From an archaeon (GTDB taxonomy: Archaea; Micrarchaeota; Micrarchaeia; Anstonellales; Bilamarchaeaceae), in NCBI GenBank assembly GCA_020053355.1, contig JAGVNI010000019.1, positions 7,707 to 71,706 on the forward strand: a stretch of DNA of 64,000 nt, in the 5' to 3' direction. Numbering within the stretch: the stretch's first letter is position 1; each line of letters starts with the position of its first letter. This document shows positions 5,883 to 24,129 of this stretch, piece after piece. The position numbers and the translations under genes were made by a program. The notes beneath the pieces were generated by a model. The model saw nothing but the letters and a program-made list of their open reading frames with translations. It had not been told where the DNA came from and did no database searches.

Positions 5883-5891
5883 CTACCAAGC

Positions 5892-6416: not shown

Positions 6417-6469
6417 ATGTGGGTATCCCGGGGAGATATTAAAAGGGCGATTGGGCGGATGCAAACCGC

Positions 6470-7666: not shown

Positions 7667-10600
7667 TCAGATGGCGCCCCCTGCGGCCTCCATTTCCCGC
7701 CTCGCCCTTTCCTCGCAGTATTGCTCGGCACTCCGGGTGCTGGTCACGAAACCATCCCTGGATTCGGTGTACTGGCCGCGGTTGAATTGCTGGAGGGCCT
7801 GTGTTCCGGAGCGGTATACGTCTGCAGGAATTTCTGCCCGGTATTCGGATGATGCCTCAAGCACGGTCCGCGAGCCAGCAACGTAGCCGGCAAACGCCCT
7901 TCCGTCTAAGGTTGGCACCTGTTCCGCTACAGGAAGGGTGTAGTCCACCCGAGGCGTCTCTCCGGATACGGGTCCGCTTCCCCTGCCCAAATCCATGAAT
8001 GCGCGCGAGGTTTGGTCTTGCGGCCCTCCAGCCAGAGTGCCAAGGAAGGTGGTATGGTCGTCCATTCCGGTCGGATTAAACCCGGTGCGGGCGGTATAAT
8101 CGACCTGGCTGGCTGCGAATCGGCCCAGTGCGTAGTCGGTACGGTCCGAAGCGGACGCATCAGGAGGAAGCCTGGCCCGCGCCTCATCCTGTGCAGCAGA
8201 CCAGTCGCGGCTTGTTGTCGCAATGAAGGAAACCCGGTCTGAGGGAGCCCTCTGCTCCTCGCTCTGGCGCCATGCGGCGTCTATGGTAGCGCGTGCCGCC
8301 GGGTCTTCCGGACGTATATCAGGATGCGTGGCGGCATAATCCGCTGCAAAAGCTACTCCAGCCGGGCTGTCAGCAGGCCGGGGATTGAACGCGCCCGTAG
8401 TCATCACGCCCCTGTAAGCCATGTCTGAATCGAATGGCATGTATGTCGTCGGGTTCGAAGATATCTCCCGCGCTACCGTATGCTCGGCCGCATCGAAGCT
8501 TCTTGCGACGCCTCTTGCCCGGTCGAGATAATCTGACGCGTATGCCATTGCGGCAGGCCGGTCCTCAGCAGCGATTGTCGGGTCGCGCATGACGCGTTCC
8601 TGCACGGTGGCGAGGACCGCGCCGTCGCTCATGCCCACAAGCTCGGTCCCCAAGCCAAGCATATGCCTTGCGACGTTCGTTCCTAAAGGCGGGTCGCCGC
8701 CAGCCACGAGTTCAGGGTGCGCGGCCATCGTGGGAGCGACAGAGTCATGAATCCGGGTGTCCACTACCTCGGTTGCGCCAGTCTCCCTGCGCCCCGTGTA
8801 TGCGGCTATTGCCGCATCAGCCACCGAAGTGCCTGATGGCGGAGTGTAGCCTGTGGGAAGGATGCCAATCCGTTGCGCCTCCACCTCAGCAGTTCTACGA
8901 GTATCGGGGTTATCTGAATGCAGGTTTCTTACCACCTGGCGTTCCGCAGCGTCAATGCCATCTATTCTGGGGCGCATCGCAACCTCTATCGCGCTGGCGG
9001 TTCGCGGGTCCTCCGGATTGAATGTCGCCCCACCCCGTTCATATTGCGCACGGACTTCTTCCCGGGCATCGTAATATGCCTGTGCGCGCGGGCTCATATT
9101 TTCTGCGTTCTCTCCTTCCCGGTTGCCGGTCCGAAGGGCAGTCATGAACGCGGTGTCGTATTCCCTTGCTCCCCTGCGCGCTTCTGCCGAATATTCCACT
9201 TCGGTCTGGCCGAAGCTCGTGCCGCCATAAAGCAATCCTGCGGCGCGGGCCACATCACCATCGACACCGGCCTCGGAAAGCCTCCTCTCCAGAGTCTCTC
9301 CGCCTTCACGTCTGGCCGTGCCGCCCTCCTCAAGGGCCCTGGCAAGGTCCGGGTTCCTTTCCCGGAGCTGCGCTCCGACCTCGGTCATCACGGCAGTCTG
9401 GTATGCCTGGTTCGCCTGAACCATGTTGTTAGCAGCCTGATAGAAGCCATCCAGGTGCTCGCGCACGCCGCTTGCGTCAACAGGTGAGCCCCTTGAAGCG
9501 TTTGTGTCGAGCACGATGTTGGTGCCGGCGAGGGATGTCTGGAACCAGGTGCCGCCAGCGCCTTCTACCGGCTGGTCCCGCCGCAGGATGTCCCGGCCGT
9601 TGGCGTCGGTGGCTGAAGTGAATGCGTCGTTCTGGACGGTTATCGTGGTGCCGGCAGTAAGGCCGGTCCGGTTGGCCGGCTCGCCGGTAGGCGTGTATGA
9701 CGCATCGACCACGCGGATGGTGCAGTCGCCGCGCGCATCGCTTTTCGGCGTCCCGTCCGGATTGCGCTCCCCTTCTCCGCTAAGGTGGAGGACGTTCCGG
9801 TCGGTGACATCGACCATGCCGTACTGCTCCATGTAGACGCGCTGGGTGCGCTCGAGGCTGGCGTTCGCCGACTCCATCGTCCGGGCGGTCATCTCGCGCA
9901 TGTTCGCTGCGGTCAACGCCTGGATGCCCTGTATGGAATCCATGGAATGCCCGTCGTTATTAATCAGCTCGCGGACTGCGTTTTCCATCGTTGAAGTAAC
10001 GCCCACCTGCATGCCGGGCTGTCCCGGCTGGCCTGTCGGAATGCCCCGGTCGAACATCGTAATCTCGCCCGCCTGGCTCCGTTGAATGACAATCGTACCG
10101 ACTTCCGTGATGTTCCCCTGCGCATCCCTGCGGACTTCCTGGGTGGTCGGGGCGCGGCCGACATCGACACCGCTATAGTCCGTGATGCCTGCGGCGACGA
10201 CCGTATTGTTGGGACCCAAGCGATAATTGATGCCGACCTGCTCAACGCCTCCCGGATTGACCACGCGTTCGAAACCCGTGGCGACGCCATTCTCAAGGCG
10301 CCAGTTGGTGAGCTGCCTTGAATCGCCGCTGCCGGATGAGACATGGATTGTGACTGTCGACTCTCCGTTCGCGCCGGTGTTCTCCACGGTGGCAACAGCC
10401 CGGGCCCCTGCGGGGAGACCAAGGCCATCAGTGCTGACGTCGACGTAGCGGCTGCCCCTCACGCCCGTCATGGAGCCGTCATCATCCACGCGTGAGCGCC
10501 CTTCCGCAAAGCTGACGCTCGGATTCGAGCACATGGTCCCGTAGCGGTCAGTGAAAAGTTCTGATTCTGCGATGGCCCTTGCGCCGGTCTCCCTCCTGCT

Positions 10601-11842
10601 TCCAGCGACAGCGCTTTCCATCGTATTCGAAAGGCTGCCGAGAGTGGTGGAGAACATGCCGCCGACTGTCGAGAGGAATGATGAATCCCAAAGCGAAGCG
10701 CCAATCCGTCCCAGAGCAAGGCCGAATTCCGTCCCCCAGGAGCCCACCACCTGGCCAGCATCGAAGGCACGTCCTGCGACCGGCCCGGAGCCGGGGCCGA
10801 TGGGCTTGCCTTCCTTGTCCACCCGCCCGCCTAATGCCCTGACATTGGAGGCCTGGACATCCCGCCTGGCCTTGGAGAATGCGCCGGAGATGCCGGGCCT
10901 TTGGCGTCTTCCGCCCCCTAGGGACACGTTTTGGCTGACCTGCGTGGCTTTCCCTGACCCTCCGGCACCGGCTGTGCCCACAAGCACATCCCCAAGGTCG
11001 CGGACCATCGAATATCCGAACCATTTCGCCTCGGTAGCTTCTCCCTTCCTTCTGCCTGTTTCCTTGCCCTCGGAATCCACTTCGGGCTGCATCTCGTTTA
11101 CCGCGCTTGAGACGGACATTATCACGGATTTCAAATCAAGCGAGAAGCCCCTGCCCCTCGCCTGGTACCTCATGTGCTTGCCGACACGCGCCCCGCCGAT
11201 GTTGAAGCCGGCCCACGGGTTCTTCCCTGTGAGGTAAAGCGCCCCTGAGAGCAATGAGAATACAATCAGCAGGGGAAGGCAGAGGGCGGGCGTCGACGCC
11301 ATTCCGGGCGGCGGCGGGCAGTATGAGAGCTGGTCCACGGCGGGCAGGTACCTCGCTTCGCTTAGCAGCGCCGGAGCAGGCTTGCTTCCCGGGCCCACGT
11401 CAATCTCGTCCGCGCTGTCCTTGTCCGTTTCGATAAGGGAGTAATTCAGGCATGCCTTGAAGCCGCATTCGGGCGACGAAGGGCTGCAGAAGGGGCAGTA
11501 GAGCACCTTGAAGGTTATGCAGCCGTTCTTCCATGTGGTGAAATCGAAATGCGCGGAGCCGTTGGAATCCGTATATGTCTTGTATAGCTCCTTGAGCCCG
11601 GTCGAATTGGTCATCTCTATTATCATTATGGAATCGTTTATCGGCTGGCGCGAAACGGGCGCCGTGAGATTCTCGTAATATACGTAGATGTCGATCGTGT
11701 GGGCCGTATCGTCGTTGACTGAGAGAATCCTTGCCTGCGGCTTGCCGGACATCTCCTCGCAGGAGATGCAGTCGGACGCGATGATGGAGGATGCAAGCGC
11801 GAGCAGGACCAGGGCGATGAAGGCAAATCTCATGATAATCAT
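7667..11842 (-). CDS. Giant (~1390 aa) single-pass membrane protein: signal peptide, ~170-aa Cys/N-glyco ectodomain, one TM, ~1150-aa Cys-free A/G/R/D/E/T-rich domain; no recognisable family
   Basis: Long ORF. Real start is ATG 11842 (MIIMRFAFIALVLL...) or 11833, because the ORF portion 11843-12259 overlaps the divergent gene and promoter. TM at LCLPLLIVFSLLSGALYL. No enzymatic motifs recognised. Confidence 0.85.
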   Translation of the reverse strand: MIIMRFAFIALVLLALASSIIASDCISCEEMSGKPQARILSVNDDTAHTIDIYVYYENLTAPVSRQPINDSIMIIEMTNSTGLKELYKTYTDSNGSAHFDFTTWKNGCITFKVLYCPFCSPSSPECGFKACLNYSLIETDKDSADEIDVGPGSKPAPALLSEARYLPAVDQLSYCPPPPGMASTPALCLPLLIVFSLLSGALYLTGKNPWAGFNIGGARVGKHMRYQARGRGFSLDLKSVIMSVSSAVNEMQPEVDSEGKETGRRKGEATEAKWFGYSMVRDLGDVLVGTAGAGGSGKATQVSQNVSLGGGRRQRPGISGAFSKARRDVQASNVRALGGRVDKEGKPIGPGSGPVAGRAFDAGQVVGSWGTEFGLALGRIGASLWDSSFLSTVGGMFSTTLGSLSNTMESAVAGSRRETGARAIAESELFTDRYGTMCSNPSVSFAEGRSRVDDDGSMTGVRGSRYVDVSTDGLGLPAGARAVATVENTGANGESTVTIHVSSGSGDSRQLTNWRLENGVATGFERVVNPGGVEQVGINYRLGPNNTVVAAGITDYSGVDVGRAPTTQEVRRDAQGNITEVGTIVIQRSQAGEITMFDRGIPTGQPGQPGMQVGVTSTMENAVRELINNDGHSMDSIQGIQALTAANMREMTARTMESANASLERTQRVYMEQYGMVDVTDRNVLHLSGEGERNPDGTPKSDARGDCTIRVVDASYTPTGEPANRTGLTAGTTITVQNDAFTSATDANGRDILRRDQPVEGAGGTWFQTSLAGTNIVLDTNASRGSPVDASGVREHLDGFYQAANNMVQANQAYQTAVMTEVGAQLRERNPDLARALEEGGTARREGGETLERRLSEAGVDGDVARAAGLLYGGTSFGQTEVEYSAEARRGAREYDTAFMTALRTGNREGENAENMSPRAQAYYDAREEVRAQYERGGATFNPEDPRTASAIEVAMRPRIDGIDAAERQVVRNLHSDNPDTRRTAEVEAQRIGILPTGYTPPSGTSVADAAIAAYTGRRETGATEVVDTRIHDSVAPTMAAHPELVAGGDPPLGTNVARHMLGLGTELVGMSDGAVLATVQERVMRDPTIAAEDRPAAMAYASDYLDRARGVARSFDAAEHTVAREISSNPTTYMPFDSDMAYRGVMTTGAFNPRPADSPAGVAFAADYAATHPDIRPEDPAARATIDAAWRQSEEQRAPSDRVSFIATTSRDWSAAQDEARARLPPDASASDRTDYALGRFAASQVDYTARTGFNPTGMDDHTTFLGTLAGGPQDQTSRAFMDLGRGSGPVSGETPRVDYTLPVAEQVPTLDGRAFAGYVAGSRTVLEASSEYRAEIPADVYRSGTQALQQFNRGQYTESRDGFVTSTRSAEQYCEERARREMEAAGGAI

Positions 11843-11927
11843 AGTTTTGGTAAGTTTATAAATTTGCCACTCGGCAGGCTTCCGGGAATATCGAAAACAT
11901 TTAAATGCGTGACTTATAATTAGAGGC
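11843..11927. promoter_or_regulatory. Divergent intergenic promoter with two TATA-like boxes
   Basis: tttataaat (11855-11863) lies about 26 nt from ATG 11833 on the minus strand. cgaaaacatttaaat (TATA 11899-11905 with a purine-rich BRE-like stretch) lies about 26 nt upstream of ATG 11928. This implies leaderless transcripts. Confidence 0.6.
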
Positions 11928-13130
11928 ATGCAGCTGCGGCCACTGGCATTATTCCTATTCGCAATCATGCCACTCGCTTTTTCGGCCGCCAGCCCGGTTG
12001 ACCTGACGTTCGCCGTCCCCGTGATGGCGGCCGTCGTCGCGGCGTTCCTCGGAATCGCGAACATGCTCTCGCACTCCATCTCGGACCCGAAATTGGAGGC
12101 ATGGGTGAACACCGAGATGCGCGAATTCTTCGCCGCGGTGGTGCTCATCGTCATCATCACCGGCTCGCTGATAGGAAGCAACGGCGTCGCGAAGGCGCTG
12201 ACAGGATATGACGATTTCACCGGCGCGGCCCAGGGCGTCGTGGACGGGTGGCTCGGCACCTATGACGGCGCATTCGAGTATATAATCAAGGCCGCGGGCA
12301 GGATAAGGGCGGCCGCCACGTATTCCCCGTACCTCAACATACCGATCTGGTATTTCTCGATCAACTATTCCACGAACACGCTGGGCGGCATCGCCATAAT
12401 ACTCGGGCCGCTGAACATGGCCGCGCAGGGGCTTACGAACGCCATCTACCTTTCCGAGGGCCTGCGCATGCTTCTCGTGTTCCTCAAAATCGTGGTTCCG
12501 CACATCCTCCTGCCGATTGCTTTCGTTACGAGGCTGATTCCTTTCTCGAGGAAGCTCGGCAATACCCTTATCGCCCTCTCGATAGCGGGCATCATATTCC
12601 TCCCGCTCTCGGTCATAATGGCCAGCGCGCTAAACGGCACGATAACGATGCCGGTGCCGACGATGGACCTCAGCAGGCTCGACGCGGACCCCTGGGCGAT
12701 GGAGTTCGCCGAGCCGCTTTGCGAAAGCGTGCCTGTCCGGAGCCTGCTGTTCGTGACCGAGCAGATTTTCTCTGCAATCGTATGCCTGCCGCTCCTCCTC
12801 ACCCCGTGGACCGCCGGGCTCTACCAGGCGCCGTGCCGGGAGCCCCTGATGCACCAGGTCGTCTACCCGCTCATCCAGCTGATTTTCCAGATTGTCAGCA
12901 CCGTGCTCCTCCTGATATGGGAGATTGCGTACAGCGCAGGCATGGCCCACACGTATGCCGAGCAGGTTTTCGGGGAGGTCCTGGGGTTCCTCCGCGCGGT
13001 CAACAATCTCGTCGTGGTCGCTTACATTGATTTCATAATGGTCGGGATAATCACTTTGACCGGCGCCAGAAGCCTGTCGAGTGCCCTTGGCGGCGAATGG
13101 TACATGGCGGGGATACAGAGGCTCATATGA
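11928..13130 (+). CDS. Polytopic membrane protein, paralog P1 of a six-member family (unknown family)
   Basis: 400 aa, signal peptide MQLRPLALFLFAIMPLAFSAAS. Blocks: AWVNTEMREFF, RKLGNTLIALSIAGIIFLP, C-terminal ALGGEWYMAGIQRLI. Confidence 0.85.
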   Translation: MQLRPLALFLFAIMPLAFSAASPVDLTFAVPVMAAVVAAFLGIANMLSHSISDPKLEAWVNTEMREFFAAVVLIVIITGSLIGSNGVAKALTGYDDFTGAAQGVVDGWLGTYDGAFEYIIKAAGRIRAAATYSPYLNIPIWYFSINYSTNTLGGIAIILGPLNMAAQGLTNAIYLSEGLRMLLVFLKIVVPHILLPIAFVTRLIPFSRKLGNTLIALSIAGIIFLPLSVIMASALNGTITMPVPTMDLSRLDADPWAMEFAEPLCESVPVRSLLFVTEQIFSAIVCLPLLLTPWTAGLYQAPCREPLMHQVVYPLIQLIFQIVSTVLLLIWEIAYSAGMAHTYAEQVFGEVLGFLRAVNNLVVVAYIDFIMVGIITLTGARSLSSALGGEWYMAGIQRLI

Positions 13131-14125
13131 ACCACTTCAAGGCTTGCTTGTTCATCCTGCTGCTCGCGGCGACAGTGCACTCCAGCTGCGTCTCCGACGC
13201 GACAGACGTCGTGCTGTCCGATCAGGGTTTGCTGATTGGCATGGTGATCGGCTTCACGGCAGTCGTGCTTGCGCTCGCGTACATGATAGGCACGACGCTC
13301 GGGCACACGCATTACGTCGTCTTCGCCAAGGACGAGGCATACCATCTCGGGTTCTCAATCGTCATGCTCTTCGCCTTCAGCGCGGTCCTCATATTCTCAT
13401 GCGACCTTATGAATTACTTCTATCACGGCGTATTCGCGAACCTCGGCCCCCTTCCATCGCAGTGCTACCTGGGCGAGGGGACGGGGATGAACAGCGCCGC
13501 ATCGTGCTACATCAAGCTCGTGAAGAACGACGCCACGAGGCTGTCCAAGAGCTATATACAGAATTACCTGGATTACCTGATGGAATCCACGTTCTCTTTC
13601 AGCCTCGCCATACCGCTCTTGAACTCCTACACGGCCATTCCGGGCGCGTACCGGAGGGTCGTGTCCAACCAGTATGACATCATCCTGAACACGTTCCTGA
13701 TACCCGCGCTCATGAGTCTCAGCATGCAGAAAATCGGTCTTGATTTCATAAACGAGAATGTAATCAAATGGATTCTTCCTTCGGCCTTCGTCCTCCGGTT
13801 CTTCATACCAACACGGCAGATGGGGAACATGCTGATAGCGCTGTCGCTTGGATTGTACGTCATCGTCCCGTTCATGTATGTGTTCAACCTGGCCATGTAT
13901 GACGCGGTCCTCAGCGACTGCAACGCATATGCCCAGGCTGTTTGCGACAGCGTCGTGGACAGTTACAGCTGCTCCAGCTCGCCCGAGATTACGTGCAGCA
14001 ACCCGGACGGGTTCTGGTTCGTCGCGAGGCTTATTCCGCAGGCGATATTCCTGCCGAACCTGACAATCGCGATACTTATAACGTTCCTTAGCGCCGTGCA
14101 CAAGGGACTGAGGGTGGTCGGATGA
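13127..14125 (+). CDS. Polytopic membrane protein, paralog P2
   Basis: Start at ATG 13127 overlaps the P1 stop (ATGA). Signal peptide MNHFKACLFILLLAATVHS. Blocks: VFAKDEAYHLGF, RQMGNMLIALSLGLYVIVP. The C-terminal tail is divergent. Confidence 0.8.
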   Translation: MNHFKACLFILLLAATVHSSCVSDATDVVLSDQGLLIGMVIGFTAVVLALAYMIGTTLGHTHYVVFAKDEAYHLGFSIVMLFAFSAVLIFSCDLMNYFYHGVFANLGPLPSQCYLGEGTGMNSAASCYIKLVKNDATRLSKSYIQNYLDYLMESTFSFSLAIPLLNSYTAIPGAYRRVVSNQYDIILNTFLIPALMSLSMQKIGLDFINENVIKWILPSAFVLRFFIPTRQMGNMLIALSLGLYVIVPFMYVFNLAMYDAVLSDCNAYAQAVCDSVVDSYSCSSSPEITCSNPDGFWFVARLIPQAIFLPNLTIAILITFLSAVHKGLRVVG

Positions 14126-16197
14126 GAAAGGCTTTCCTGTTGTTACTCCTGCTTGCGGCTTTCGTTGCTGCCACGGATACGGTTACACAAACCCAGTTCG
14201 AACAGCAGACCCAGAGCTCACCGCTCGAGATTGCGCGCGACTGGAAGGTCTTGGCCGGCCTGTCCCTCATGCTTTCGGTCATACTTGTCGGAATCGGTTA
14301 CGCGATAGGCGTGGGCCTCGAGATGCCGGAGATAAAGGCATGGGCGAGCAACGAGATGGCCCAGATTTTCGCAAACGCGCTGATAATAATCGTCCTGATA
14401 GCGACCATCGCGTTAATCGACGGGCTCGTCGTTTCGATGGTGATGGGAAGCGGCCTGAACGTCCCGGCCTGCTCGACCGTCGGCCAGAGCTGCCTGCAGA
14501 ATGTGACGGTAATCTACCTGCAGGATTATGTGAGCACGGCCGAATCCGGAGCCAGGGACGTCCTCGTCAACAACATGGATGCCGCGCATGCCGCCAGCAT
14601 AAGGATCGGGCTGTACTGCACGACGGCGTTCCTTCCGCTCTTCTGCCTCCAGGCCGGATTCACAACGACCGTTGCCGGGCAGTACATGCTGGACCAGGAC
14701 ATGTATGCGATACTCTTCGAGTACTACACCGGCCTGCTCTCATCCATGGAGGCGCAAAAGTTCTTCGTGACCGAAATCTGCTTCAAGATGGCTCCGGTCG
14801 TTCTCGCGATAGGCATAGTCGCGCGCGCATTCTTTTTCACGCGGAAAATCGGCGGCCTCCTGATTGCCATAGCGGCCGGATTGATGTTCTTCTTCCCAGG
14901 GATGTACATCTTCGACTGGATAACCCTGGACATGGCCGTGAACGGGGACAAATTGATGAATGCCGACGACCCGTTGTGCCCGGCAGAATGCGGCGTCGCC
15001 GCGCCGCGCGCCTATTATGACGGCGGCTCGCTGACATCGCCCCCGGATGTTTATTTGGCATTCTCGGAAGGGGACGCCGGGGTGGCCGCCGGGATAATCG
15101 ACGGCAGTATAGCGTCAGCCACAGGCTCGAACCCGGACAGCCCTGCCAACGGCAAAACGGTGACGTCATGTTTCTACGGAGCTTATGGAGGCTGCGCCCT
15201 CGATTGCAGGGAGCTTCCGTATCCGGCCTCTTCCGGCAATTGCTCGAATATGGCCGTGGAGACGCTCTGTGCTACGGTTCCTGAGCAGTGCAAGGTGAGG
15301 CGCCTCGTGGACACATCCTCGCCTAAGTTCGACTTGAACGAGTACAACAAGTGCCCGGCGTCGTGCAAGATTGTGCCGCCATTGAAAAGCGACTGCTCCA
15401 CGGGCTCGGAGGCATGCATGGGTTCTCGGTTCGACTGCCGCCTGGCCATGCGCTCGAACCTGGACTGGAGGCCGACCACGGTCGATATAGAAGGCAGCAA
15501 TTACTGGCAATGCGTCTTCGCTGCGGCATGTCCAGCAAGCCTCGATGCCTACCAGAACTGCGTATATGTGATTCCGGACAGCGGCAGGTGCAACGACCTC
15601 TGCGTAGCATGCCCGGCCGAATGCAGGATACGCGACGCGAACCTGGCGGACCTCCCTGCGCAGTGCAAGGACGGCGACGGCAACCTGCTTTCGCCATGCG
15701 CGACCTGCCACACGGCCTATGACAGCTGCACGATAGGCATGACTGACATAACCTCGCTTAATCCGCCTGCGGAATCCTGCGGCTCATGCCCGGCAGTGAA
15801 AAGGATAGTATACTCTACGCTGCCCGAGGACTACGTCACAGGCGGCTGCTCGATAGAAGCATGCCCCAAGGATTACCGGGCGGCCATACCCCGCAACACG
15901 TGCGAGAGCTGCCTGTTCACGGAGGAATCGTACGTCTACAACCCGCCGATAAACACGCAGTGCGGGGACCAGTGCAGCTCGACCGGCAACGTCCCTGCGA
16001 AGAAGCCGGGCGAATACACCAAGATAGGCGGGGACGGCCTGGTGGGCAAGCCTGAAATCGTGAATGTGGCGAAACTCATGGTCCCGGTCTATCTCCTGCC
16101 CCTTTTCAACATAGTCACGACGCTCGTATTCATTAAAGGCCTGTCCGGCATGCTCGGAGGGGACATAGAGATCCCGGGTCTCGCCAAGGTGTTCTGA
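14122..16197 (+). CDS. Polytopic membrane protein, paralog P3, with a ~330-aa Cys-rich ectodomain insertion
   Basis: 691 aa. ATGA overlap with P2. Blocks: AWASNEMAQIF, RKIGGLLIAIAAGLMFFFP, C-terminal MLGGDIEIPGLAKVF. About 32 Cys between the block-B helix and the last TM. Confidence 0.85.
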   Translation: MRKAFLLLLLLAAFVAATDTVTQTQFEQQTQSSPLEIARDWKVLAGLSLMLSVILVGIGYAIGVGLEMPEIKAWASNEMAQIFANALIIIVLIATIALIDGLVVSMVMGSGLNVPACSTVGQSCLQNVTVIYLQDYVSTAESGARDVLVNNMDAAHAASIRIGLYCTTAFLPLFCLQAGFTTTVAGQYMLDQDMYAILFEYYTGLLSSMEAQKFFVTEICFKMAPVVLAIGIVARAFFFTRKIGGLLIAIAAGLMFFFPGMYIFDWITLDMAVNGDKLMNADDPLCPAECGVAAPRAYYDGGSLTSPPDVYLAFSEGDAGVAAGIIDGSIASATGSNPDSPANGKTVTSCFYGAYGGCALDCRELPYPASSGNCSNMAVETLCATVPEQCKVRRLVDTSSPKFDLNEYNKCPASCKIVPPLKSDCSTGSEACMGSRFDCRLAMRSNLDWRPTTVDIEGSNYWQCVFAAACPASLDAYQNCVYVIPDSGRCNDLCVACPAECRIRDANLADLPAQCKDGDGNLLSPCATCHTAYDSCTIGMTDITSLNPPAESCGSCPAVKRIVYSTLPEDYVTGGCSIEACPKDYRAAIPRNTCESCLFTEESYVYNPPINTQCGDQCSSTGNVPAKKPGEYTKIGGDGLVGKPEIVNVAKLMVPVYLLPLFNIVTTLVFIKGLSGMLGGDIEIPGLAKVF

Positions 16198-17180
16198 TGA
16201 AAGCTGCAACCGCCCTGCTATTCCTGATGATGGTGCCGCTCGCGTTCGCGGCATGGCAGACAACGGCGGCTGTGGCCATAGCCACGTCAATCGGGTTGCT
16301 GGGCGCGATATACATACTCGGCATGGGATTCGGAATCAGCGAATTGCAGATGACGGCCAAGGAGGAATTCTTCCAGCTTATCGCGGCGGCGCTGATGATA
16401 GTCTTCCTGGTGGGCGGGGATTCTGCCCTGAATGCCATTTCAACCAACTTCGGGGATAGCGGCTCGGCGACCTTGCAGGAGGCGGCGAGGGCCAGTATCG
16501 ACACCACCCTTACGGGCGTGACCGGCCTGATGACCAGCATAGAGGGCACGGACAAGGCGGCGGCCATTGAAGGCTCGAAGGCCAGCTCCTGCAGCATCCT
16601 GGGGATGGGATACTCGGTGAGCGGATGCGGAAGCTACACCATGCTCGCGACGCCGCTTTCCATGGCGGGAGGGATAACCGGTTTCGCGGTCGGCGAGCTC
16701 TACACCATGAAGCGGCTTATCCAGCTTTCCGAAGGGTTCGCATTCCCGTTCCTGCTTCCCCTAGGCATCGTGCTGAGGACGTTCAAGTTCACAAGGGGGG
16801 CCGGAGGGCTCCTGATAGCGCTCGCAATCTCGCTCCACATATTGCTGCCGATAGGCTTGATATTCAACGACATGCTCGGAGCCACGTTCCTGGACCCCCC
16901 GGGAACGGATAATGACGCGCTCTCGGCACCCTACAAGGCCGTTCCGCAGAGCGTCAGCCTCAGCTGCAACCCCGGGGACACGGGCCCGGACAACGAAAAC
17001 AACGCGGTCGGCGGGTACCATACCCTGCGGACCAATCTGCGGGTGTACCTGTTCACGATGCTCATCCAGGCGACGCTCGGCCCCGTGCTGGCGTTGCTCA
17101 TGATGTCGACAGGCCTAAGGACATTAACATCGCTCGCCGGCGCCGAGGTCGACGTGAGCGCGATATCGAGGTTCGTCTGA
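16197..17180 (+). CDS. Polytopic membrane protein, paralog P4
   Basis: 327 aa. TGATG overlap with P3. Blocks: MTAKEEFFQLI, RGAGGLLIALAISLHILLP, C-terminal LAGAEVDVSAISRFV. Confidence 0.85.
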   Translation: MKAATALLFLMMVPLAFAAWQTTAAVAIATSIGLLGAIYILGMGFGISELQMTAKEEFFQLIAAALMIVFLVGGDSALNAISTNFGDSGSATLQEAARASIDTTLTGVTGLMTSIEGTDKAAAIEGSKASSCSILGMGYSVSGCGSYTMLATPLSMAGGITGFAVGELYTMKRLIQLSEGFAFPFLLPLGIVLRTFKFTRGAGGLLIALAISLHILLPIGLIFNDMLGATFLDPPGTDNDALSAPYKAVPQSVSLSCNPGDTGPDNENNAVGGYHTLRTNLRVYLFTMLIQATLGPVLALLMMSTGLRTLTSLAGAEVDVSAISRFV

Positions 17181-18259
17181 TGGCATACCTATGCGGCCCT
17201 GAATTCGGAGCTTTCTTTTCGGACAGCGTGCTCCCGCTCCTGGTGTACGCCGCCAGCGCGCTCATCGGCCTGATCGGCATCGCGTACATGGCCGGCACCG
17301 CTACCAGCAATGCCAAGCTTACCCTCTGGAGCAAGACCGAGGCAGTCCAGTTCGTCGTATCCACCGTGTCCGTGTTCCTCATAATAACCACCATGAACAC
17401 GTTCTGCGCCATCAAGATCAACGAGATAGCCAGCATTTTCGACATGCCGGCGGCGGCAGGCGACCCGGACATCTACGCCGCGGCAAACGGCTACCTCCTC
17501 GACGCGGCGATATACTCGCACAATGCGCTCACGGTGGTGAGATACCACCTTGAGGCGTACACCACGCTTTCTTTCTTCAACGCGTTCATGTGCGACCTCG
17601 CGACAGGCAGGATTGGCTGGGGCTGCCTGTTCGGGTATTCCGGCGAGAGCCAGCAGCCCTTGGGCGGCTACAGCGTGCAGACCGCGGCGATGAACATATT
17701 CTTCAACGGCGCCATAATAGCGCATTTCATGTCCCTCAACTTCATCTTCATCCTGCTGTTCGTCTACAAGGGCTTCGTGTTCCTGTTCCTCCCCCTGGGG
17801 GTGTTCATGCGCTCCATGCCGTACATGAGGTCTTTCGGCTCCCTACTCGTGGCGCTCGCCATCTCGTTCCTCCTCATCTACCCGTTCCTGCTCGCGGTGA
17901 TGTACCTGATGAGGAGCGTGCTTGTGGATGCGGACACGGGATACACCCCGCTCCCGGTCCCCATGAGCGGGTATGACGAGAGGAGGTACGACGACATGGT
18001 CAACGGGGGCGACATGATAGCGATGAGCACGCTGGGCGAAGAATACGTATGGCACTGCTATTTCAGCGTTGACGGCTGCGGATGGAGCGGGGACTCCAAG
18101 GAGAACCTGCCCGGTGCGATAGGGTTCGCATCCAACGCGTTTGTGGCCGCCGTGTTCTTCCCGAGCGTCGCGCTCCTCGCTACGATAGCGAGCGTCGGCT
18201 ATATCGCGAGGCTCTACGGCGATGAGATAGATTTAAGTAGGATAACACAACTGGTGTAG
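17180..18259 (+). CDS. Polytopic membrane protein, paralog P5
   Basis: 359 aa. TGATG overlap with P4. Blocks: LWSKTEAVQFV, RSFGSLLVALAISFLLIYP, C-terminal LYGDEIDLSRITQLV. Confidence 0.85.
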   Translation: MAYLCGPEFGAFFSDSVLPLLVYAASALIGLIGIAYMAGTATSNAKLTLWSKTEAVQFVVSTVSVFLIITTMNTFCAIKINEIASIFDMPAAAGDPDIYAAANGYLLDAAIYSHNALTVVRYHLEAYTTLSFFNAFMCDLATGRIGWGCLFGYSGESQQPLGGYSVQTAAMNIFFNGAIIAHFMSLNFIFILLFVYKGFVFLFLPLGVFMRSMPYMRSFGSLLVALAISFLLIYPFLLAVMYLMRSVLVDADTGYTPLPVPMSGYDERRYDDMVNGGDMIAMSTLGEEYVWHCYFSVDGCGWSGDSKENLPGAIGFASNAFVAAVFFPSVALLATIASVGYIARLYGDEIDLSRITQLV

Positions 18260-18261
18260 AT

Positions 18262-19284
18262 ATGGCGTTCCTTGCGCTTTCCGTAAGCAGTTTTTTCGGA
18301 GGATGGGCGAACTGGCTCCCACTGTCAATCCTGGCGGTGGCGGCAGCGGTGCTCTTCCACACGGTCCTGCTCATGGTGGCGAGGGCGTTCTCGATTCGGG
18401 AACTTGAAGCGTATGCCGTATCCGAGATACTCCAGGCGGCCGCAACGGCATTCATGGCCATTTTCCTGGTCGCCATGGTCGGAAGCGCGATGGAGATATC
18501 GCAGGGCCTCATCCATGGCGAGGTCAACTGCGGCGGCACGGCCATGCACATAGGGACCAGCGCCAATTCGACGATGGACCAGGCGTACTACGCCATCCGG
18601 TGCAGGCTGCAGACCAGGACCAGCGAGGTCGCCGCCATCCAGGACGGCATCACAAGCTCCGGCATGGTGGGGCTGGAGTTCAATGCGATCAACATGGCGG
18701 CAAGCCTGTTCGGCATCACCGTTTTCAAGGGGGACTGGGTGACCGGGCTTTACCGCTCCACGGAAACGACGAGGATAACCAACAATCTCGCCACAGTGAT
18801 GCTCATCGGGCTCAACGCGCAGTCCTCGCTCCTGGAGTACCTGCGCATCAACATGCTCCACGTGTTCATCCCGGTCGGGATTCTGCTGCGGGGCTTCTAC
18901 ATAACGCGTGGGCCGGGCGCGCTTTTCATCGCCCTTGGCATCGGGATGTATTTCATTTTCCCGATATTCTTCGTCCTCCTCGACCCGGGTTTCGTGGCGA
19001 CGCCGCTCCCGGCGGCGGTGAACACCCAGCAGCAGCAGACCCTGTGCTATCCCACGATGACGAATGCGGTGTCGGTGCTCACCTCGCTCGAGAACTCGGG
19101 CTTCGGGAGCAGCGCCGGGCTGTCTTTCGACAGCCTCAGGAACGACCTTTCGAAATCGTACATAACGCTCATGCTCCACCCGCTCGTGGCATTCTTCCTG
19201 ACGATGGTCTTCGTGAGATACATGATGTCGGTGCTTGGCGGAGACACGTTTGAACTGACAAAAATGGTAAGCAAAGTGATTTGA
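18262..19284 (+). CDS. Polytopic membrane protein, paralog P6
   Basis: 340 aa, 2-nt gap after P5. Blocks: AYAVSEILQAA, RGPGALFIALGIGMYFIFP, C-terminal VLGGDTFELTKMVSKVI. Confidence 0.85.
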   Translation: MAFLALSVSSFFGGWANWLPLSILAVAAAVLFHTVLLMVARAFSIRELEAYAVSEILQAAATAFMAIFLVAMVGSAMEISQGLIHGEVNCGGTAMHIGTSANSTMDQAYYAIRCRLQTRTSEVAAIQDGITSSGMVGLEFNAINMAASLFGITVFKGDWVTGLYRSTETTRITNNLATVMLIGLNAQSSLLEYLRINMLHVFIPVGILLRGFYITRGPGALFIALGIGMYFIFPIFFVLLDPGFVATPLPAAVNTQQQQTLCYPTMTNAVSVLTSLENSGFGSSAGLSFDSLRNDLSKSYITLMLHPLVAFFLTMVFVRYMMSVLGGDTFELTKMVSKVI

Positions 19285-22200
19285 ATGGGAAAAGCTCTGG
19301 CGATATCGGTCGTGTTGCTGGCTATCCTGGCCGCGGGATGCATACAGCCCGTGGTCAAGCTCGGCTGCTGCCTGAAGGAAAACATCAGCGAAGGCTGCGT
19401 GCTCTACAACACCACGGACTTCACGAACAGCAGCTACATAGACAGGACCAACGGCCCGTGCGACAGCAACGACACGGCCTACAACACCACCGGGCACTGC
19501 AACGTCACTATAAACATGGGCGGGTCGGCGGGGGAAAAATCGTTCCTCGTGCCGATATGCACGCAGGACGACATCAGGCCGTGCATAAACCAGAACTGCA
19601 CGACCATGGTGTGCGGCGATTTCGCATACAAGCCGCGTTTCGCCCCGGGATTCCAGACGAGCGGGAACGACACCAGCAACCCGGACTCCAGCGTCGAGGC
19701 ATCCGGGGGCAACATCCCGCCGGACACCGGAGAGGGCGGGGCGGCGGGTTTCTACAAGGCCCAGTGCAGGTTCCTCAAGATGGACGCGAAACTGCGGCAG
19801 ATCATGAAAAGCTCGAAGTCGCAGATAAACGTCTTCAGGATAGGCGTGGGCGGCTCCATGGACGAATTCGACCAGTACAGGTACTACTTCCCCCTTTCGG
19901 ATAGATACTGCAACATAAATCCCGGCTCGGAAGGTGAGGAGCGGGTAGACAGGTATATGAACTACCTGACCAGCTCGAAAACAGATTACAATCCCGAAGC
20001 GGACATCACGACCAACTGCCTCAAGGACGGCGGCGCAAGCTTGTTCGGCAGCCCGAATCCCTTCGGCTTCGGCGAAAGCCCGGCTGCGCGGGCATCGAGC
20101 ATTTCGGTCGCCTTCGGTTACAGCCCGGTAGTGCCTGATGAATCCAACTACAAGTTCGCCCACCAGGCGCGGGAGGACTGGTTTTCGTCCTGGGACAGCG
20201 GCTGGGGGGGCTACTACTATGGCGGCCCGTCCATCCGCCAGGATTCGGTCTTCAAGAGGATTGACGAGGAATACTACAGGCGTGAATTGTCGATTGCGCA
20301 CGCGGCGACCATCTACGGGGAAACGATGGCAAACACCACCCGGGCGCCTTTCGAATGCGACTCGAGAGGCAACGAATGCTACTCTGGAACGTGCAACACG
20401 CAGTTCTACTCAAGGGGAGTCCTCCTGACATATCCGGGACTTACCGGCACCGTGCCGCCCGATGAGGTCGTGGCGGACTGCAACAGGGTCAGCAACGAGA
20501 ACGGGAAGACGATTGTCGTCTGCGCGCCCACAAAATCCGTATCAATCAGCCCTACGCCCGGCGTCCCTCCGACGTTCACATACGCAACCGTCGATGTGAG
20601 GCCGCAGCATTTCGAGGTCGAACTCGACAACAACGACGAATATGATTACTCCAGCCTGACCGAAGAGGAAAACGTGCTTGACCCGTTCTGGGACGGGTTC
20701 AACACCGGGCAGTTGGGTACCAAACTGACCGGGCACACACGCACGATAACCGGCACGGGATATTATACTTATTGGTATTTCACGCAGAAGAGGTACTGCC
20801 AGTCGGATTACGGGACCAACAACGAAACGACCCAGGTCCTCTGCTCCTCCGTCTCTGAGAGCTGGTACAAGCCTCCGGCGGGTGGGGTTGTCTTTTTCGG
20901 AAAGCAGGGCGAGGGCAATGGTGTCGTCTACAACGGAAATAAGATAATAGGATATGCCATCTCATCCCCGTCCGATTTCAAGGACATAAAATTCGTGAAA
21001 AAATGCGGCATCAATGTCAGCAGCGATACGGAGACGGGCGATTTCGTCCGGGTGGAACTGGACAGCATGGACGACCCGGACTGGGCGGCGCTGCAAGCCG
21101 CCTTCAAGCCGTACTTCCAAGAAAGGCTGAAATCCATGACGACCGGCGGTTTCGACGACGGCTGCGGCGATGCGCTCCAGCCCGTCGATGCGGTCCTCTC
21201 GGCGATGCCATGGGTCGTGAATTACCAGAAAGGCATCCGTGACGCGGATTTCCTCTTCTCAGACACTCTGGAGCCGATATCATACCATATGAGTTCCACG
21301 AGCGCGCAGGCCTTGCGGAAAAACAACGTATATACCGAATACATGGAAACCTGGCCCGGGACAAGCAGCTGCGAACTCCGCAGGACGACGCTGTCGTGGT
21401 GGCTGCCCGTCGACCTTAACTTCTATTACGACGTCCTTTTCTCGAGGTACATATACCTCTTCAAGTACACCGACGGCTCGAGCAAGCTCGGCAATTGCGC
21501 GGTAGACGAAAGCGATTACCTCCCCACCGTCAGGACGTACGGCTGGTGCGAGCCCTGCACGACTTCGACCCTTGCATTCCAGAGCATAAGCGCACACGAA
21601 CGCGTGTATATGCCGGCCTACACTGCCAATGTGGAGGGAGCGGGCGGCACTAGTATCGAGAACATCTGCACCGCCCAGTACGACACCAGGTGGGAGGGGT
21701 GGCTCGATTTCACGCATACCGATAATGTTTCATGCATGAATCCGCGCATTACTGACGTGAATGAATACAAGGAATCCATCGGCGGCATCGGCTCCCCGAG
21801 GACGTCCCCGGAAGCCACCATCCTGAAAGAAAGGCTCGGGAATTACATGAAGTCCGGGATAATGCCTGTTTTCGACATGACGGATGCCAGCAACTGGAAC
21901 ATGGCGAACCCGGATGCCGGCACAGGCGGATTCTGGCTGTTCTATGACGAGGCGCCGGCAACTTACCAGCAGTACGATTTCCAGAGGCTCTTCGGGGAGA
22001 TGGGAGCGACGGTGGTCATAGTGAACCACATAAGCGGCGATGCGACCGATGCGCAGATTGAGGATATCATCAACCGGGCTTCGGTAATCCACGAAAGGTG
22101 CTTCGGCTGCCTGACCGCCTTCCATGTGGACGGCCCTGCGAGCAACACGAGCTTCAATGATTCCGTCAATTCTGTGCTTTCGGACACGCGCGCGAACTTC

Positions 22201-23193
22201 GCGGTGGACATGGTGACGTTCGACTACCCCATATCCAGCCACTCGTCGGTCTTTTCTGGCCTGAGCGAGCCGGAGAACCGCAGCGAGGCCATCGCAAACG
22301 ACATCGCCTCTTACGGCCGTGTCGCACTGCAGGCGAAGAGGAAGCCGACCATGGTGGTCGGCCTCAACGTCAGGAGCGACGACGGCTACTGGAATGACGC
22401 CAACTACAAGATATTGTTCGAGAAGATAGTCAGGAAACAGGACGAGATGGTCAAGAACGGCGTTATCGGGGTGATTTATTCGCCGGCCCGCGCCGCCAGC
22501 GGAACCGGCACCGGCATAGTCAGCGTCGATGCGAGCGGCCAGGGGCACAAGAGCGAGAAGTTCTGCGCCTTCCAGTCTGCCATGCAGACGATGTCCACCG
22601 GCGCGCCGGTGGCGCTGTTCTCGAGGGTCAACGCCGTGAACACCACAAACTGCACGAAATGCATGAGCCTGGACAAGGTCGGGACCGGGGTATGCTCGGA
22701 TTACAGCCGCAACGACTTGGGCATCGACCCGAAGGAGTGCGATAACGGGGTCATTTGCACGGTCCCTGAGGGCATGGATTCCGATGAGGCCAAATGCCAG
22801 CAAGGCACCATAGTGGATACGGAAGACAGCGGGTGCACGCTGTGCAACGAAACCGGCAAGATGTACACATGCACGCTCAGGTACACCAACGGCACGGTGG
22901 AGACGATAGGGCCGAGGCCGATGACCGAGGTCAGTTCGGACATGTATCTTGATATAATGGCCGGGATATCGAAGCCGAACAAGTGCTGCCTCAATGCCAC
23001 GAACGACAAGAGGTACACGTACGTAAAGGACGCATACCAGAACTCCATAACCAAGGCGATTGTGTTCTCATCCACAGGGGACCCGAAGATGGAGTGCAAC
23101 CTCGGGGACCCCAGGACCATAAGCGAGCTTGGAAGCTTCTGCGGCATCCAGCTTCCTTTGCGCGACTATGATATCAACTGCACGCTGAGTTGA
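19285..23193 (+). CDS. Giant (1302 aa) Cys-rich, N-glycosylation-sequon-rich lipobox surface protein (P7); no recognisable family
   Basis: Starts directly after the P6 stop. Signal plus lipobox MGKALAISVVLLAILAAGC. About 45 Cys by my count and many NxS/T sequons (NIS, NTT, NSS, NDT, NVT, NCT...). No C-terminal TM. Confidence 0.85.
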   Translation: MGKALAISVVLLAILAAGCIQPVVKLGCCLKENISEGCVLYNTTDFTNSSYIDRTNGPCDSNDTAYNTTGHCNVTINMGGSAGEKSFLVPICTQDDIRPCINQNCTTMVCGDFAYKPRFAPGFQTSGNDTSNPDSSVEASGGNIPPDTGEGGAAGFYKAQCRFLKMDAKLRQIMKSSKSQINVFRIGVGGSMDEFDQYRYYFPLSDRYCNINPGSEGEERVDRYMNYLTSSKTDYNPEADITTNCLKDGGASLFGSPNPFGFGESPAARASSISVAFGYSPVVPDESNYKFAHQAREDWFSSWDSGWGGYYYGGPSIRQDSVFKRIDEEYYRRELSIAHAATIYGETMANTTRAPFECDSRGNECYSGTCNTQFYSRGVLLTYPGLTGTVPPDEVVADCNRVSNENGKTIVVCAPTKSVSISPTPGVPPTFTYATVDVRPQHFEVELDNNDEYDYSSLTEEENVLDPFWDGFNTGQLGTKLTGHTRTITGTGYYTYWYFTQKRYCQSDYGTNNETTQVLCSSVSESWYKPPAGGVVFFGKQGEGNGVVYNGNKIIGYAISSPSDFKDIKFVKKCGINVSSDTETGDFVRVELDSMDDPDWAALQAAFKPYFQERLKSMTTGGFDDGCGDALQPVDAVLSAMPWVVNYQKGIRDADFLFSDTLEPISYHMSSTSAQALRKNNVYTEYMETWPGTSSCELRRTTLSWWLPVDLNFYYDVLFSRYIYLFKYTDGSSKLGNCAVDESDYLPTVRTYGWCEPCTTSTLAFQSISAHERVYMPAYTANVEGAGGTSIENICTAQYDTRWEGWLDFTHTDNVSCMNPRITDVNEYKESIGGIGSPRTSPEATILKERLGNYMKSGIMPVFDMTDASNWNMANPDAGTGGFWLFYDEAPATYQQYDFQRLFGEMGATVVIVNHISGDATDAQIEDIINRASVIHERCFGCLTAFHVDGPASNTSFNDSVNSVLSDTRANFAVDMVTFDYPISSHSSVFSGLSEPENRSEAIANDIASYGRVALQAKRKPTMVVGLNVRSDDGYWNDANYKILFEKIVRKQDEMVKNGVIGVIYSPARAASGTGTGIVSVDASGQGHKSEKFCAFQSAMQTMSTGAPVALFSRVNAVNTTNCTKCMSLDKVGTGVCSDYSRNDLGIDPKECDNGVICTVPEGMDSDEAKCQQGTIVDTEDSGCTLCNETGKMYTCTLRYTNGTVETIGPRPMTEVSSDMYLDIMAGISKPNKCCLNATNDKRYTYVKDAYQNSITKAIVFSSTGDPKMECNLGDPRTISELGSFCGIQLPLRDYDINCTLS

Positions 23194-23200
23194 GGGGCAC

Positions 23201-23542
23201 ATGGGCTTAGGAGACATCTTCAATACGTTTGCCAAAGGGCCGCCGCCTGGTTCCGGCGGGAAGGGCCAGGTCCAGAAATGCCCCAACTGCGGAGAAAAGG
23301 TCAACCTCAGCATGGAACGCTGCCCGAAATGCGGGGTGCGCGTCAAAAGCATGTTCCGGCGCAAGTGCCCCAAATGCCAGACGCTGGTCGAATTGGATGC
23401 GAAAAAATGCACCAAATGCAGGTTCAGCTTCGAAGCCGAGCTCGAAAGGGCTAATAAAACCTTTTATGTATGTCCCATATGCGGGTTTAAGATGGAGGCC
23501 ATGATGACGCAGTGCCCTGCATGCAATACCCGCTTCATGTGA
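23201..23542 (+). CDS. Triple zinc-ribbon protein
   Basis: 113 aa with three CxxC-x(n)-CxxC pairs: CPNC..CPKC, CPKC..CTKC, CPIC..CPAC. 7-nt gap after P7. Confidence 0.75.
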   Translation: MGLGDIFNTFAKGPPPGSGGKGQVQKCPNCGEKVNLSMERCPKCGVRVKSMFRRKCPKCQTLVELDAKKCTKCRFSFEAELERANKTFYVCPICGFKMEAMMTQCPACNTRFM

Positions 23543-23548
23543 GCAAAT

Positions 23549-24115
23549 ATGGCCGAATCGTACAAGCAATCCGAGAAGAAGGAGGCGGCGGATGCCCCGA
23601 AGAGGAAATTCATCCACCTGCTCGACGAGGAGGAGGTAGAGGTGAAGCGCCTCGACTCCGAGGACATCGAGGACTGCGTGAAGGTGATGCGCAAATGCGC
23701 ATTCGACGTGACGGAGGTCGAGGTGGGCAACATCATAGCCTACGGCAAGAGCTTCGGGGCGACGGTGAACCGCATGCTCGTCGGGGTGGGGCTCGCTTGG
23801 CCGGCCAGGCTCGACCTCGAGAGCAAGAAGATAACCAGCGGGGAGGCGAACGCCCTGTACATGGAGGACCCCGCCGTGCTCCTCGCTTATGAAGGCCGGG
23901 GGGTGAGGAGGATACTCCTCAAGGAGCGGGAGAAGGAAGCGGTTGACTCCAAACTCAAGTATACGATAGGATACCTCTATGAGGACATCCCGAAGGGGGA
24001 CATAGCGGGCTACATCACCGAAGCCGGAAGCGCGCTTGAAAAGCTGTACTTGTCCGAGGCCTACGAGTTCTTCAGGACCGAGAAGGGAATCCTCGCTTTC
24101 AAGAAAGTAGTCTGA
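23549..24115 (+). CDS. GNAT-like acetyltransferase-fold protein (tentative)
   Basis: 188 aa. YEGRGVRRILLKERE resembles the R/Q-x-x-G-x-G/A acetyl-CoA loop. 6-nt gap after the zinc-ribbon gene. Confidence 0.45.
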   Translation: MAESYKQSEKKEAADAPKRKFIHLLDEEEVEVKRLDSEDIEDCVKVMRKCAFDVTEVEVGNIIAYGKSFGATVNRMLVGVGLAWPARLDLESKKITSGEANALYMEDPAVLLAYEGRGVRRILLKEREKEAVDSKLKYTIGYLYEDIPKGDIAGYITEAGSALEKLYLSEAYEFFRTEKGILAFKKVV

Positions 24116-24129
24116 TTTTATAAAAAAAA

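Follow-up and report, generated by a model that had tools for sequence, protein, structure and literature searches.

Six paralogous membrane proteins in a conserved gene module of Micrarchaeota: a candidate envelope platform

Why should an archaeon keep six divergent copies of a polytopic membrane protein gene side by side? The question is raised by the window analysed here, a stretch of 64,000 nucleotides from a member of the Bilamarchaeaceae (assembly GCA_020053355.1, contig JAGVNI010000019.1, positions 7,707 to 71,706 of the forward strand), which carries the row of genes P1 to P6. A preliminary description of this locus had noticed three sequence blocks common to the six proteins, a Glu just before a transmembrane (TM) helix (block A), an Arg- and Gly-containing motif closed by Pro (block B) and a C-terminal tail (block C), and had suggested a hetero-oligomeric ring or channel rather than redundancy. 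Bilamarchaeum is placed in the order Anstonellales, class Micrarchaeia, of the kingdom Nanobdellati, which corresponds to DPANN. Much of archaeal diversity belongs to the DPANN archaea, Micrarchaeota among them, whose envelope machines and cell–cell exchange are almost unstudied.

The module comprises about nine genes, coding for a PadR-family regulator, the giant protein G1, P1–P6 and the giant lipoprotein-like protein G2. In the reading that we favour, with a probability of roughly 0.5, P1–P6 assemble into an obligate hetero-oligomer in the membrane, which serves as the platform of a surface complex directed at glycans.

Gene order, paralogy and orthology

The translation of open reading frames (ORFs) reproduced the six plus-strand genes with their original boundaries (Table 1). 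For P2, the ATG overlapping the P1 stop codon was taken as the start; the first ATG, at position 13097, would give a protein of 342 amino acids (aa) instead of 332. The P1/P2 and P2/P3 junctions are ATGA overlaps (-4), those of P3/P4 and P4/P5 are TGATG overlaps (-1), P5 and P6 are separated by 2 nt and G2 follows P6 with a gap of 0 nt. Since start and stop codons overlap or abut all the way from P1 to G2, the genes appear to form one tightly coupled operon, and the junctions indicate translational coupling of P1–P6–G2. The A/T-rich spacer between P1 and the divergent G1 gene is a putative archaeal promoter pair and a putative PadR target, judging by the TATA-like elements in it. Scans of the region for tandem repeats and for bacterial promoters and terminators gave nothing informative.

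The relationship of the six proteins was assessed with hhalign, using one alignment per orthologous group with about 30 species each. All 15 pairs of P1–P6 were significant (probability 88–99.6%, E from 2.9e-6 to 1.5e-23), and the alignments between paralog groups were collinear, spanning 54–322 columns. The probability in controls with reversed sequences did not exceed 6.4% in 18 of 21 cases; the remaining three (12, 16 and 67%) were comparisons of a group with its own reverse and covered short stretches. A second, independent hhalign run on the weakest pair agreed. Pairwise blastp and phmmer searches among the six proteins gave E-values down to 2e-8 (database size 1e6), with P4 linked to every other member. 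P1–P6 are thus true paralogs, and the motifs noticed earlier are more than the generic composition of TM helices.

A synteny scan with one genome per GTDB species yielded 33 loci (designated L001 and so on where they have to be told apart), every one of them under a Micrarchaeota-type, 'ainarchaeum' or 'archaeon' name. Long enough for six genes were 31 of them, representing 30 distinct contigs, as L001 and L024 lie on the same one. The order P1-P2-P3-P4-P5-P6-G2 was kept in all 31, and each ORF matched best the paralog of the same number in the window, one to one and with none missing. A G1 homologue, where detected together with upstream sequence in these loci, was oriented divergently to P1. 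The same P1–P6–G2 order was found in a more divergent clade, in which P1 is about 30% identical and the PadR gene is directly divergent from P1. The fixed order and the one-to-one orthology mean that the duplications predate the clade and that the set has since seen no loss, gain or relocation of a paralog. Moreover, GCA_022627495.1, the assembly of an organism closely related to that of the window, carries two complete eight-gene modules on separate contigs, JAKEGJ010000016 (L010) and JAKEGJ010000003 (L037). Both copies have the same internal order and differing genomic contexts, and every gene is orthologous to its numbered counterpart.

Several features distinguish the orthologous groups and are kept across species, such as the missing tail of P2, the Cys-rich ectodomain of about 380 aa in P3 and the lack of a signal peptide in P5 and P6. 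These paralog-specific features, together with the one-to-one orthology, the fixed order, the translational coupling and the duplication of the whole module, favour an obligate multi-subunit complex. Hetero-oligomers of ancient paralogs are well known, for example the V-ATPase c/c'/c'' ring, the FliP/Q/R export gate, MCM2-7 and the proteasome rings, in which obligate retention implies fixed positions, and operon order may, as a general principle, reflect the order of assembly. P1–P6 share the logic of duplication and one-to-one retention with such rings and no homology, and their assembly is proposed, not observed. If it holds, P1–P6 would add a clear new case of a membrane complex arising through repeated duplication in which every copy had to be retained.

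A HMMER scan of 1.84 billion cluster representatives (50% identity) detected 2891 members of the family at E ≤ 1e-3, including 2009 at E ≤ 1e-10, and the matches of a profile search of 5.8 billion proteins were all 'hypothetical proteins'. Nearly all named matches came from Micrarchaeota, Micrarchaeia, Anstonellaceae or Bilamarchaeum, and the named long members of the family were also from Micrarchaeia or Anstonellaceae. The exceptions among the match names were several 'ainarchaeum' records, 'archaeon' records and a single contig, 1.7 kb long, under the name Nitrososphaera. The family and the module are restricted to the Micrarchaeota lineage.

Searches of Pfam, NCBIfam, PHROGs and PADLOC gave nothing useful for P1–P6, G1 or G2. 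Among 78 family members (six paralogs from each of 13 species), only sub-threshold noise was seen, namely WCOR413 (E 0.01–0.02 in five of the 78) and HHH_5; the match of P3 to V-ATPase subunit K in NCBIfam (E 4.9e-4, 19.9 bits against a cutoff of 127) covered a TM hairpin only. No match for the family was found in the PDB with single sequences or with profiles. The family model thus corresponds to no well-described family in these curated libraries, in keeping with the first view of the locus. The literature on Micrarchaeota, DPANN, Anstonellales, S-layers, paralogous membrane proteins and the cell envelope contained no description of the module, and a large comparative study of Micrarchaeota, focused on metabolism, does not mention it (PMC12892359). 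Archaeal secretion and membrane-remodelling systems (Makarova et al. 2015; neighbourhoods of arCOG01314 and arCOG01994) were considered and rejected due to their differing composition, as were the ARM-1 nanotubes, which are produced by the host cell. The genes described here make up a self-contained module kept gene for gene across a major clade of Micrarchaeota, sometimes twice per genome, with nearly 3000 clusters and absent from the curated libraries tested. It represents a new kind of system, the function of which we infer below; its hosts belong to uncultivated lineages, and how it works is a matter of speculation.

Table 1. Features of the module in the window (position 1 is the first nucleotide of the 64,000).
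Feature	Position	Strand	Description
P1	11928-13130	+	400 aa; signal peptide, 5 TM, extra hydrophobic helices in ecto-loop 2; tail ALGGEWYMAGIQRLI
P2	13127-14125	+	332 aa; signal peptide, 5 TM; sole paralog without a C-terminal tail
P3	14122-16197	+	691 aa; signal peptide, 5 TM; 381-aa ectodomain with 32 Cys between TM4 and TM5
P4	16197-17180	+	327 aa; minimal, most 'central' member; best matches to all other paralogs
P5	17180-18259	+	359 aa; no signal peptide; short acidic N-terminus
P6	18262-19284	+	340 aa; no signal peptide
G2	19285-23193	+	1302-aa Cys-rich lipoprotein-like protein
G1	7667-11842	-	1391 aa; divergent from P1
PadR-family winged-helix regulator	7335-7655	-	106 aa; start overlaps the G1 stop by 13 nt
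Divergent G1/P1 spacer	11843-11927		85 bp, A/T-rich; TATA-like TTTATAAAT, TTTAAAT and TTATAAT about 20-30 bp from each start codon

Topology, conserved residues and fold

Hydropathy analysis predicted five TM helices in each of P1–P6, following the signal peptide where present. Signal-peptide-like N-termini in P1–P4, and their absence from P5 and P6, were seen again by inspection and hydropathy. The loop between TM3 and TM4 is 6–11 aa long in all six paralogs, with one to three Lys/Arg and no Asp/Glu. Every Cys of P1–P6 falls in the N-terminal segment or in the two large loops, and these Cys residues, including the 32 in the P3 insert, are almost all invariant within each orthologous group across about 30 species. 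In one long family member, CARDB domains, which are Ig-like and extracellular, precede TM1. Hydropathy, the positive-inside loop, the signal peptides of P1–P4, the placement of Cys and the CARDB domains before TM1 all argue for a topology of five TM helices with the N-terminus outside and the C-terminus inside. With this predicted topology, blocks A, B and C would all lie on the cytoplasmic face and the invariant Cys residues outside. The cytoplasmic face would thus combine the Glu that precedes TM2, the Arg-x5-Arg-x2-Gly turn linking TM3 to TM4 and the C-terminal tail, and the outside would be paralog-specific.

The loop following block B (TM4–TM5), originally described as hypervariable and Cys-containing, indeed varies between the paralogs, from 43 to 381 aa, and its Cys residues are nearly invariant within orthologous groups. 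Many family members (P0269 from Candidatus Micrarchaeia and P0153–P0263) reach 1100–1680 aa owing to a very large insertion after block B. This loop and the N-terminus seem to be the sites at which extra domains accumulate. P1, P4 and P6 have three invariant extracytoplasmic Cys each, an odd number, and most paralogs have a Cys pair in loop 1 and a lone Cys about 20–25 residues after TM4. Such a pattern would fit inter-subunit disulfides.

The invariant columns in the alignment of the 78 sequences were E63, R202, R208, G211 and P226 (P1 numbering), that is, a Glu, an Arg-x5-Arg-x2-Gly motif and a Pro. The Glu of block A and block B, first noticed in the six proteins of the window, are therefore invariant in 78 members, and R202, located six residues upstream of block B, is a second invariant Arg that had been overlooked. 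Block C also proved real and is group-specific, being kept within each orthologous group as ALGGEWYMAGIQRLI in P1, LGGDIEIPGLSKVF in P3, AGAEVDVSAISRFV in P4, YGEEIDLSRITQLV in P5 and LGGDTYELTKMVSKVI in P6. Its version in P2, however, had been called degenerate, and P2 is in fact tail-less, ending with ...NKALRVIG right after TM5 in all orthologs. TM4 is rich in small residues (G-x-LLIALA-x-G), no conserved polar residues were found inside the TM helices in this alignment, and the only invariant charges are located at the predicted cytoplasmic membrane boundary. Apolar helices with charges at that boundary are more in line with a scaffold or a platform for docking than with a pore filled with water.

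An AlphaFold2 (AF2) model of P1 built with 66 orthologs had a mean predicted local distance difference test score (pLDDT) of 83 and a predicted TM-score (pTM) of 0.69. The model is all-helical apart from a beta-hairpin at residues 135–148, and its helices H54–92, then H97–130, H153–203 and H297–387 indicate that TM2, TM3 and TM5 run on outside the membrane. Two strongly hydrophobic segments, 272–293 and 310–337, are situated within the predicted outside loop. The C-terminal tail was modelled with low confidence in the monomer (pLDDT 47), as would be expected of a peptide that becomes ordered only on binding.

Foldseek comparison of the P1 model with the PDB and BFVD gave no match at E ≤ 1e-3. 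Ranks 1–10 in the PDB were all occupied by TTYH1-3 (E 3.3e-3 to 5e-2, best probability 0.85), in weak matches with TM-scores of 0.15–0.20 and a root-mean-square deviation (rmsd) of 19–25 Å. TTYH proteins have five TM helices, an outside N-terminus and an inside C-terminus, their TM2, TM3 and TM5 extend beyond the membrane, and the ectodomain contains a disulfide-stabilised flap and a lipid-accessible hydrophobic extracellular pocket (PMC8361169). The number of helices and the orientation predicted for P1–P6 are those of TTYH proteins and prominins, and the P1 model resembles TTYH also in the continuation of TM2, TM3 and TM5 into an extracellular helical domain, in its ecto-disulfides or Cys and in its flexible cytoplasmic C-terminus. 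On the other hand, TTYH proteins are homodimers or homotetramers made from a single gene instead of six paralogs that always occur together, the conserved cytoplasmic Glu/Arg/tail signature of P1–P6 has no counterpart in them, and they are reported in eukaryotes only. The architectural parallel seen in the model is striking, although the scores do not establish homology. Were it to hold, a fold described so far only in eukaryotes would have its first counterpart among prokaryotes.

The same parallel is the source of an alternative, in which the paralogs would act as lipid handlers of the Tweety/prominin kind, extracting, accepting or delivering lipids or lipid-linked glycans via a hydrophobic ectodomain pocket open to the outer leaflet. 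TTYH1-3 were the sole PDB chains consistently at the top for the P1 model, which shows the same helices extended, contains a beta-hairpin and has hydrophobic segments in its outside loop; such an activity could coexist with a hetero-oligomer and would be relevant to DPANN cells dependent on partner cells. The low scores speak against it, with no rmsd below 19 Å, as does the lack of any match to Pfam Tweety or Prominin among the 78 members at E ≤ 1. Anstonellales are, moreover, reported to have their own mevalonate pathway and envelope biosynthesis (PMC12892359), so that scavenging is not clearly needed. The conserved residues map to the predicted cytoplasmic face and not to the ectodomain. We consider lipid handling an attractive alternative or addition, if an unlikely one.

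Tandem VirB6 paralogs, known from the type IV secretion system (T4SS) of Rickettsiales (RvhB6a-e), are divergent polytopic proteins, some with large extra domains, and are presumed to work in a joint machine. VirB6 arrays, the TrbL family and archaeal CedA resemble P1–P6 in the presence of several divergent polytopic paralogs in tandem; P1–P6 differ from VirB6 in TM count, topology and motifs, and no VirB4, VirB8 or coupling-protein genes are found nearby. The analogy with VirB6, offered in the preliminary description without a claim of homology, was not borne out. None of the 78 members matched Pfam TrbL/VirB6 (PF04610), even at E ≤ 1, there was no VirB6 or other T4SS chain among the 50 PDB matches listed for the P1 model, and the match of this model to a phage TrbL in BFVD was not significant (E 1.2, TM-score 0.24–0.26). 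No VirB4-type or coupling-type ATPase adjoined the module in the window or in loci L001, L003, L037, L038 and L039, where the neighbours were ScpB, an AAA_18 kinase, PadR and housekeeping genes.

These data bear on the idea that P1–P6 form a pseudo-sixfold ring translocating protein, DNA or polysaccharide in the manner of VirB6 or CedA, with G2 or G1 as its substrate or cap. Besides the tandem arrangement itself, the idea draws on the giant secreted proteins flanking the array and on the small-residue-rich TM4, a property of tightly packed oligomeric helices. It is nevertheless improbable: with ScpB, the small AAA_18 kinase and PadR as the only conserved neighbours, no ATPase or other energy source is conserved beside the module, Foldseek detected no secretion-system component at E ≤ 1e-3, and the ordinary signal peptides of G1 and G2 make the Sec pathway probable for them. 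The uniformly apolar helices and the lack of an encoded energy source disfavour a water-filled channel. The original proposal of a hetero-oligomeric ring or channel in place of redundancy thus stands as far as joint use is concerned, on account of the one-to-one orthology, the whole-module duplication and the coupling, the channel being disfavoured for want of conserved polar TM residues. Hardly probable at all is the notion of independent, partly redundant receptors or anchors that do not assemble and are arrayed for diversification (partner range, antigenic variation), for although the ecto-loops differ greatly between paralogs in length and sequence and the TM4–TM5 loop is an insertion hot spot, with members of up to 1680 aa and one with CARDB, about 30 species showed no copy-number change, loss or reshuffling of a single paralog, the ecto-Cys and tails are conserved within groups instead of diversifying, and duplication hits the whole module.

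G2, G1 and the proposed envelope platform

The signal of G2 ends in a lipobox-like ..LAAGC (MGKALAISVVLLAILAAGC), with Cys19 invariant in 50 orthologs; it fits the criterion [LVI][ASTG][GAS]-Cys at the end of a signal peptide, by which lipidation is predicted. The protein has 45 Cys, mostly invariant, and 21 N-glycosylation sequons. No family was found for G2 in Pfam or NCBIfam at E ≤ 1, and a PDB sequence search gave no match. An AF2 model of residues 20–1114, built with the 50 orthologs (pLDDT 83.8, pTM 0.79), consists of beta-rich domains followed by a (beta/alpha)8 barrel similar to those of glycoside hydrolase (GH) clan GH-A. Foldseek returned 153 PDB matches at E ≤ 1e-3, led by GH2 beta-glucuronidases and by single-domain GH53, GH5, GH10 and GH51 barrels (best probability 1.00, E 3e-6, target TM-scores up to 0.48). 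Judged by strand-helix alternation in the model, the barrel would span about residues 840–1105. A barrel preceded by beta-rich domains makes G2 similar to clan GH-A enzymes with accessory beta-sandwiches (GH2, GH5, GH10, GH53), from which it differs in its size of 1300 aa, its 45 Cys, the lipobox, an operon shared with six membrane proteins and the lack of a Pfam GH match.

G1 has a signal peptide, a Cys-rich ectodomain (residues 25–178) and one TM helix (185–206) followed by a positively charged stretch. The remaining tail of about 1185 aa is probably cytoplasmic. It evolves fast and contains no Lys after about residue 400; orthologs are conserved only over residues ~1–300, and the tail can be aligned only among close relatives. 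No Pfam, NCBIfam or PDB sequence match was found for G1. The Micrarchaeota S-layer protein carries PF05123-type domains (Gfrerer et al.); G1 and G2 lack such S-layer domains and were rejected as that protein.

The composition of the G1 tail is unusual. Residues ~400–1391 (window 7667–10640) form a stretch of about 990 residues without lysine, in which arginine accounts for about 9%. The last 900 aa of orthologs contain 1–21 Lys with 55–112 Arg in some species and 44–105 Lys with 25–54 Arg in others, and this flip does not track the GC content of the locus. Two tandem G1 homologs were found upstream of P1 in L031 (1–5568, minus strand), in one metagenome-assembled genome.

In the favoured reading, the six different 5-TM subunits would assemble into one complex, probably with one copy of each, made in operon order. 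Their TM helices would continue outward to form the helical ectodomains. Outside the cell, the complex would carry or position G2, with its glycosidase-like barrel, and the ectodomain of G1, and the paralog-specific ectodomains would hold G2. On the inside, the invariant Glu, the Arg-x5-Arg-x2-Gly turn and the tails would offer a common docking face for contacts between subunits and/or for G1. The job of such a platform would probably be to build or operate a glycan-directed surface structure, used either for glycan remodelling of the cell's own envelope or S-layer or for contact with glycans of a partner cell. All of this, from the assembly and its stoichiometry to the part played by the cytoplasmic face and the link to glycans, is proposed on these grounds.

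Several points weigh against this reading. The mutual contact of P1–P6 is deduced and not observed, and the tail-less P2 means that a perfectly symmetric ring is not implied, a ring as such being possible. The position of G1 is not fixed, since it is divergent from P1 in the window, found downstream of G2 in L039 and present in two copies in L031. Clan GH-A enzymes have a canonical catalytic Glu pair, one at the C-terminal end of strand 4 and one at that of strand 7. In G2, no such conserved pair is evident; the acidic residues conserved across the barrel region are D864, D867, D898 and D/E975. As the canonical pair is not obvious, catalysis by G2 is uncertain, and the protein may bind rather than cleave glycans or act on something else.

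A more detailed and distinctly more tentative version of the platform can be imagined. P1–P6 might form a pseudo-sixfold heterohexamer of a type not seen before, in which neighbours in the complex are neighbours in the operon, with each tail docking through its acidic and basic residues on the invariant Arg/Arg/Glu face of the next subunit and the site belonging to the tail-less P2 left free for G1. Inter-subunit disulfides might link the ectodomains, and together with G1 and G2 the hexamer might make up a trans-envelope organelle that defines the Micrarchaeota lineage and is used to contact or feed on partner cells. In architecture it could be a prokaryotic relative of the eukaryotic Tweety/prominin proteins or their convergent twin.

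PadR and the genomic neighbourhood

The regulator gene was identified as PadR by PF03551 (E 5.4e-13, 49.2 bits against a cutoff of 27). It is adjacent to the module in L001, L003, L038 and L039 and, in relatives without G1 at this place, lies directly divergent from P1. The genes coding for ScpB and a small AAA_18 kinase (window 5370–6473, minus strand) are the upstream neighbours of the main module copy in nearly all related loci, the divergent clade included. In L038, a divergent relative, a DsbA/Thioredoxin_4 gene (2560–3417, minus strand) is located between PadR and the AAA_18 kinase, which fits the oxidative folding of Cys-rich ectodomains or extracellular disulfide formation.

The downstream neighbours tested were not conserved. 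In the window, a 113-aa ORF (23201–23542, plus strand) begins 8 nt after the G2 stop codon and contains six CxxC motifs, which would suit about three zinc ribbons. It is followed by a 188-aa ORF (23549–24115, plus strand); an overlapping minus-strand ORF of 308 aa (23207–24133) has an odd composition and looks spurious. In L037, the single relative checked downstream, different genes follow G2.

The window is archaeal chromosomal DNA and also carries genes coding for ELP3, a tRNA-intron endonuclease and HerA, in addition to ScpB. The HerA/DUF87 gene (30058–31569, minus strand) is located 7 kb from the module. A tRNA of 124 nt was detected at 42100–42223 (plus strand) by Rfam with 48 bits, its length implying an intron, and none was reported by ARAGORN. 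At 1827–3002 (minus strand) there is an IS605-family OrfB/TnpB gene (Cas12f-like TNB domain), a similar gene being present in the syntenic region of L001. Between it and the module lies the gene of a 473-aa protein (3153–4574, plus strand) without a Pfam match, which has a signal with a lipobox-like ..QSGMGC, a long linker rich in Ser, Ala, Thr and Pro and a C-terminal domain rich in Cys; its homologs are encoded upstream of the module in L010, L017 and L020.

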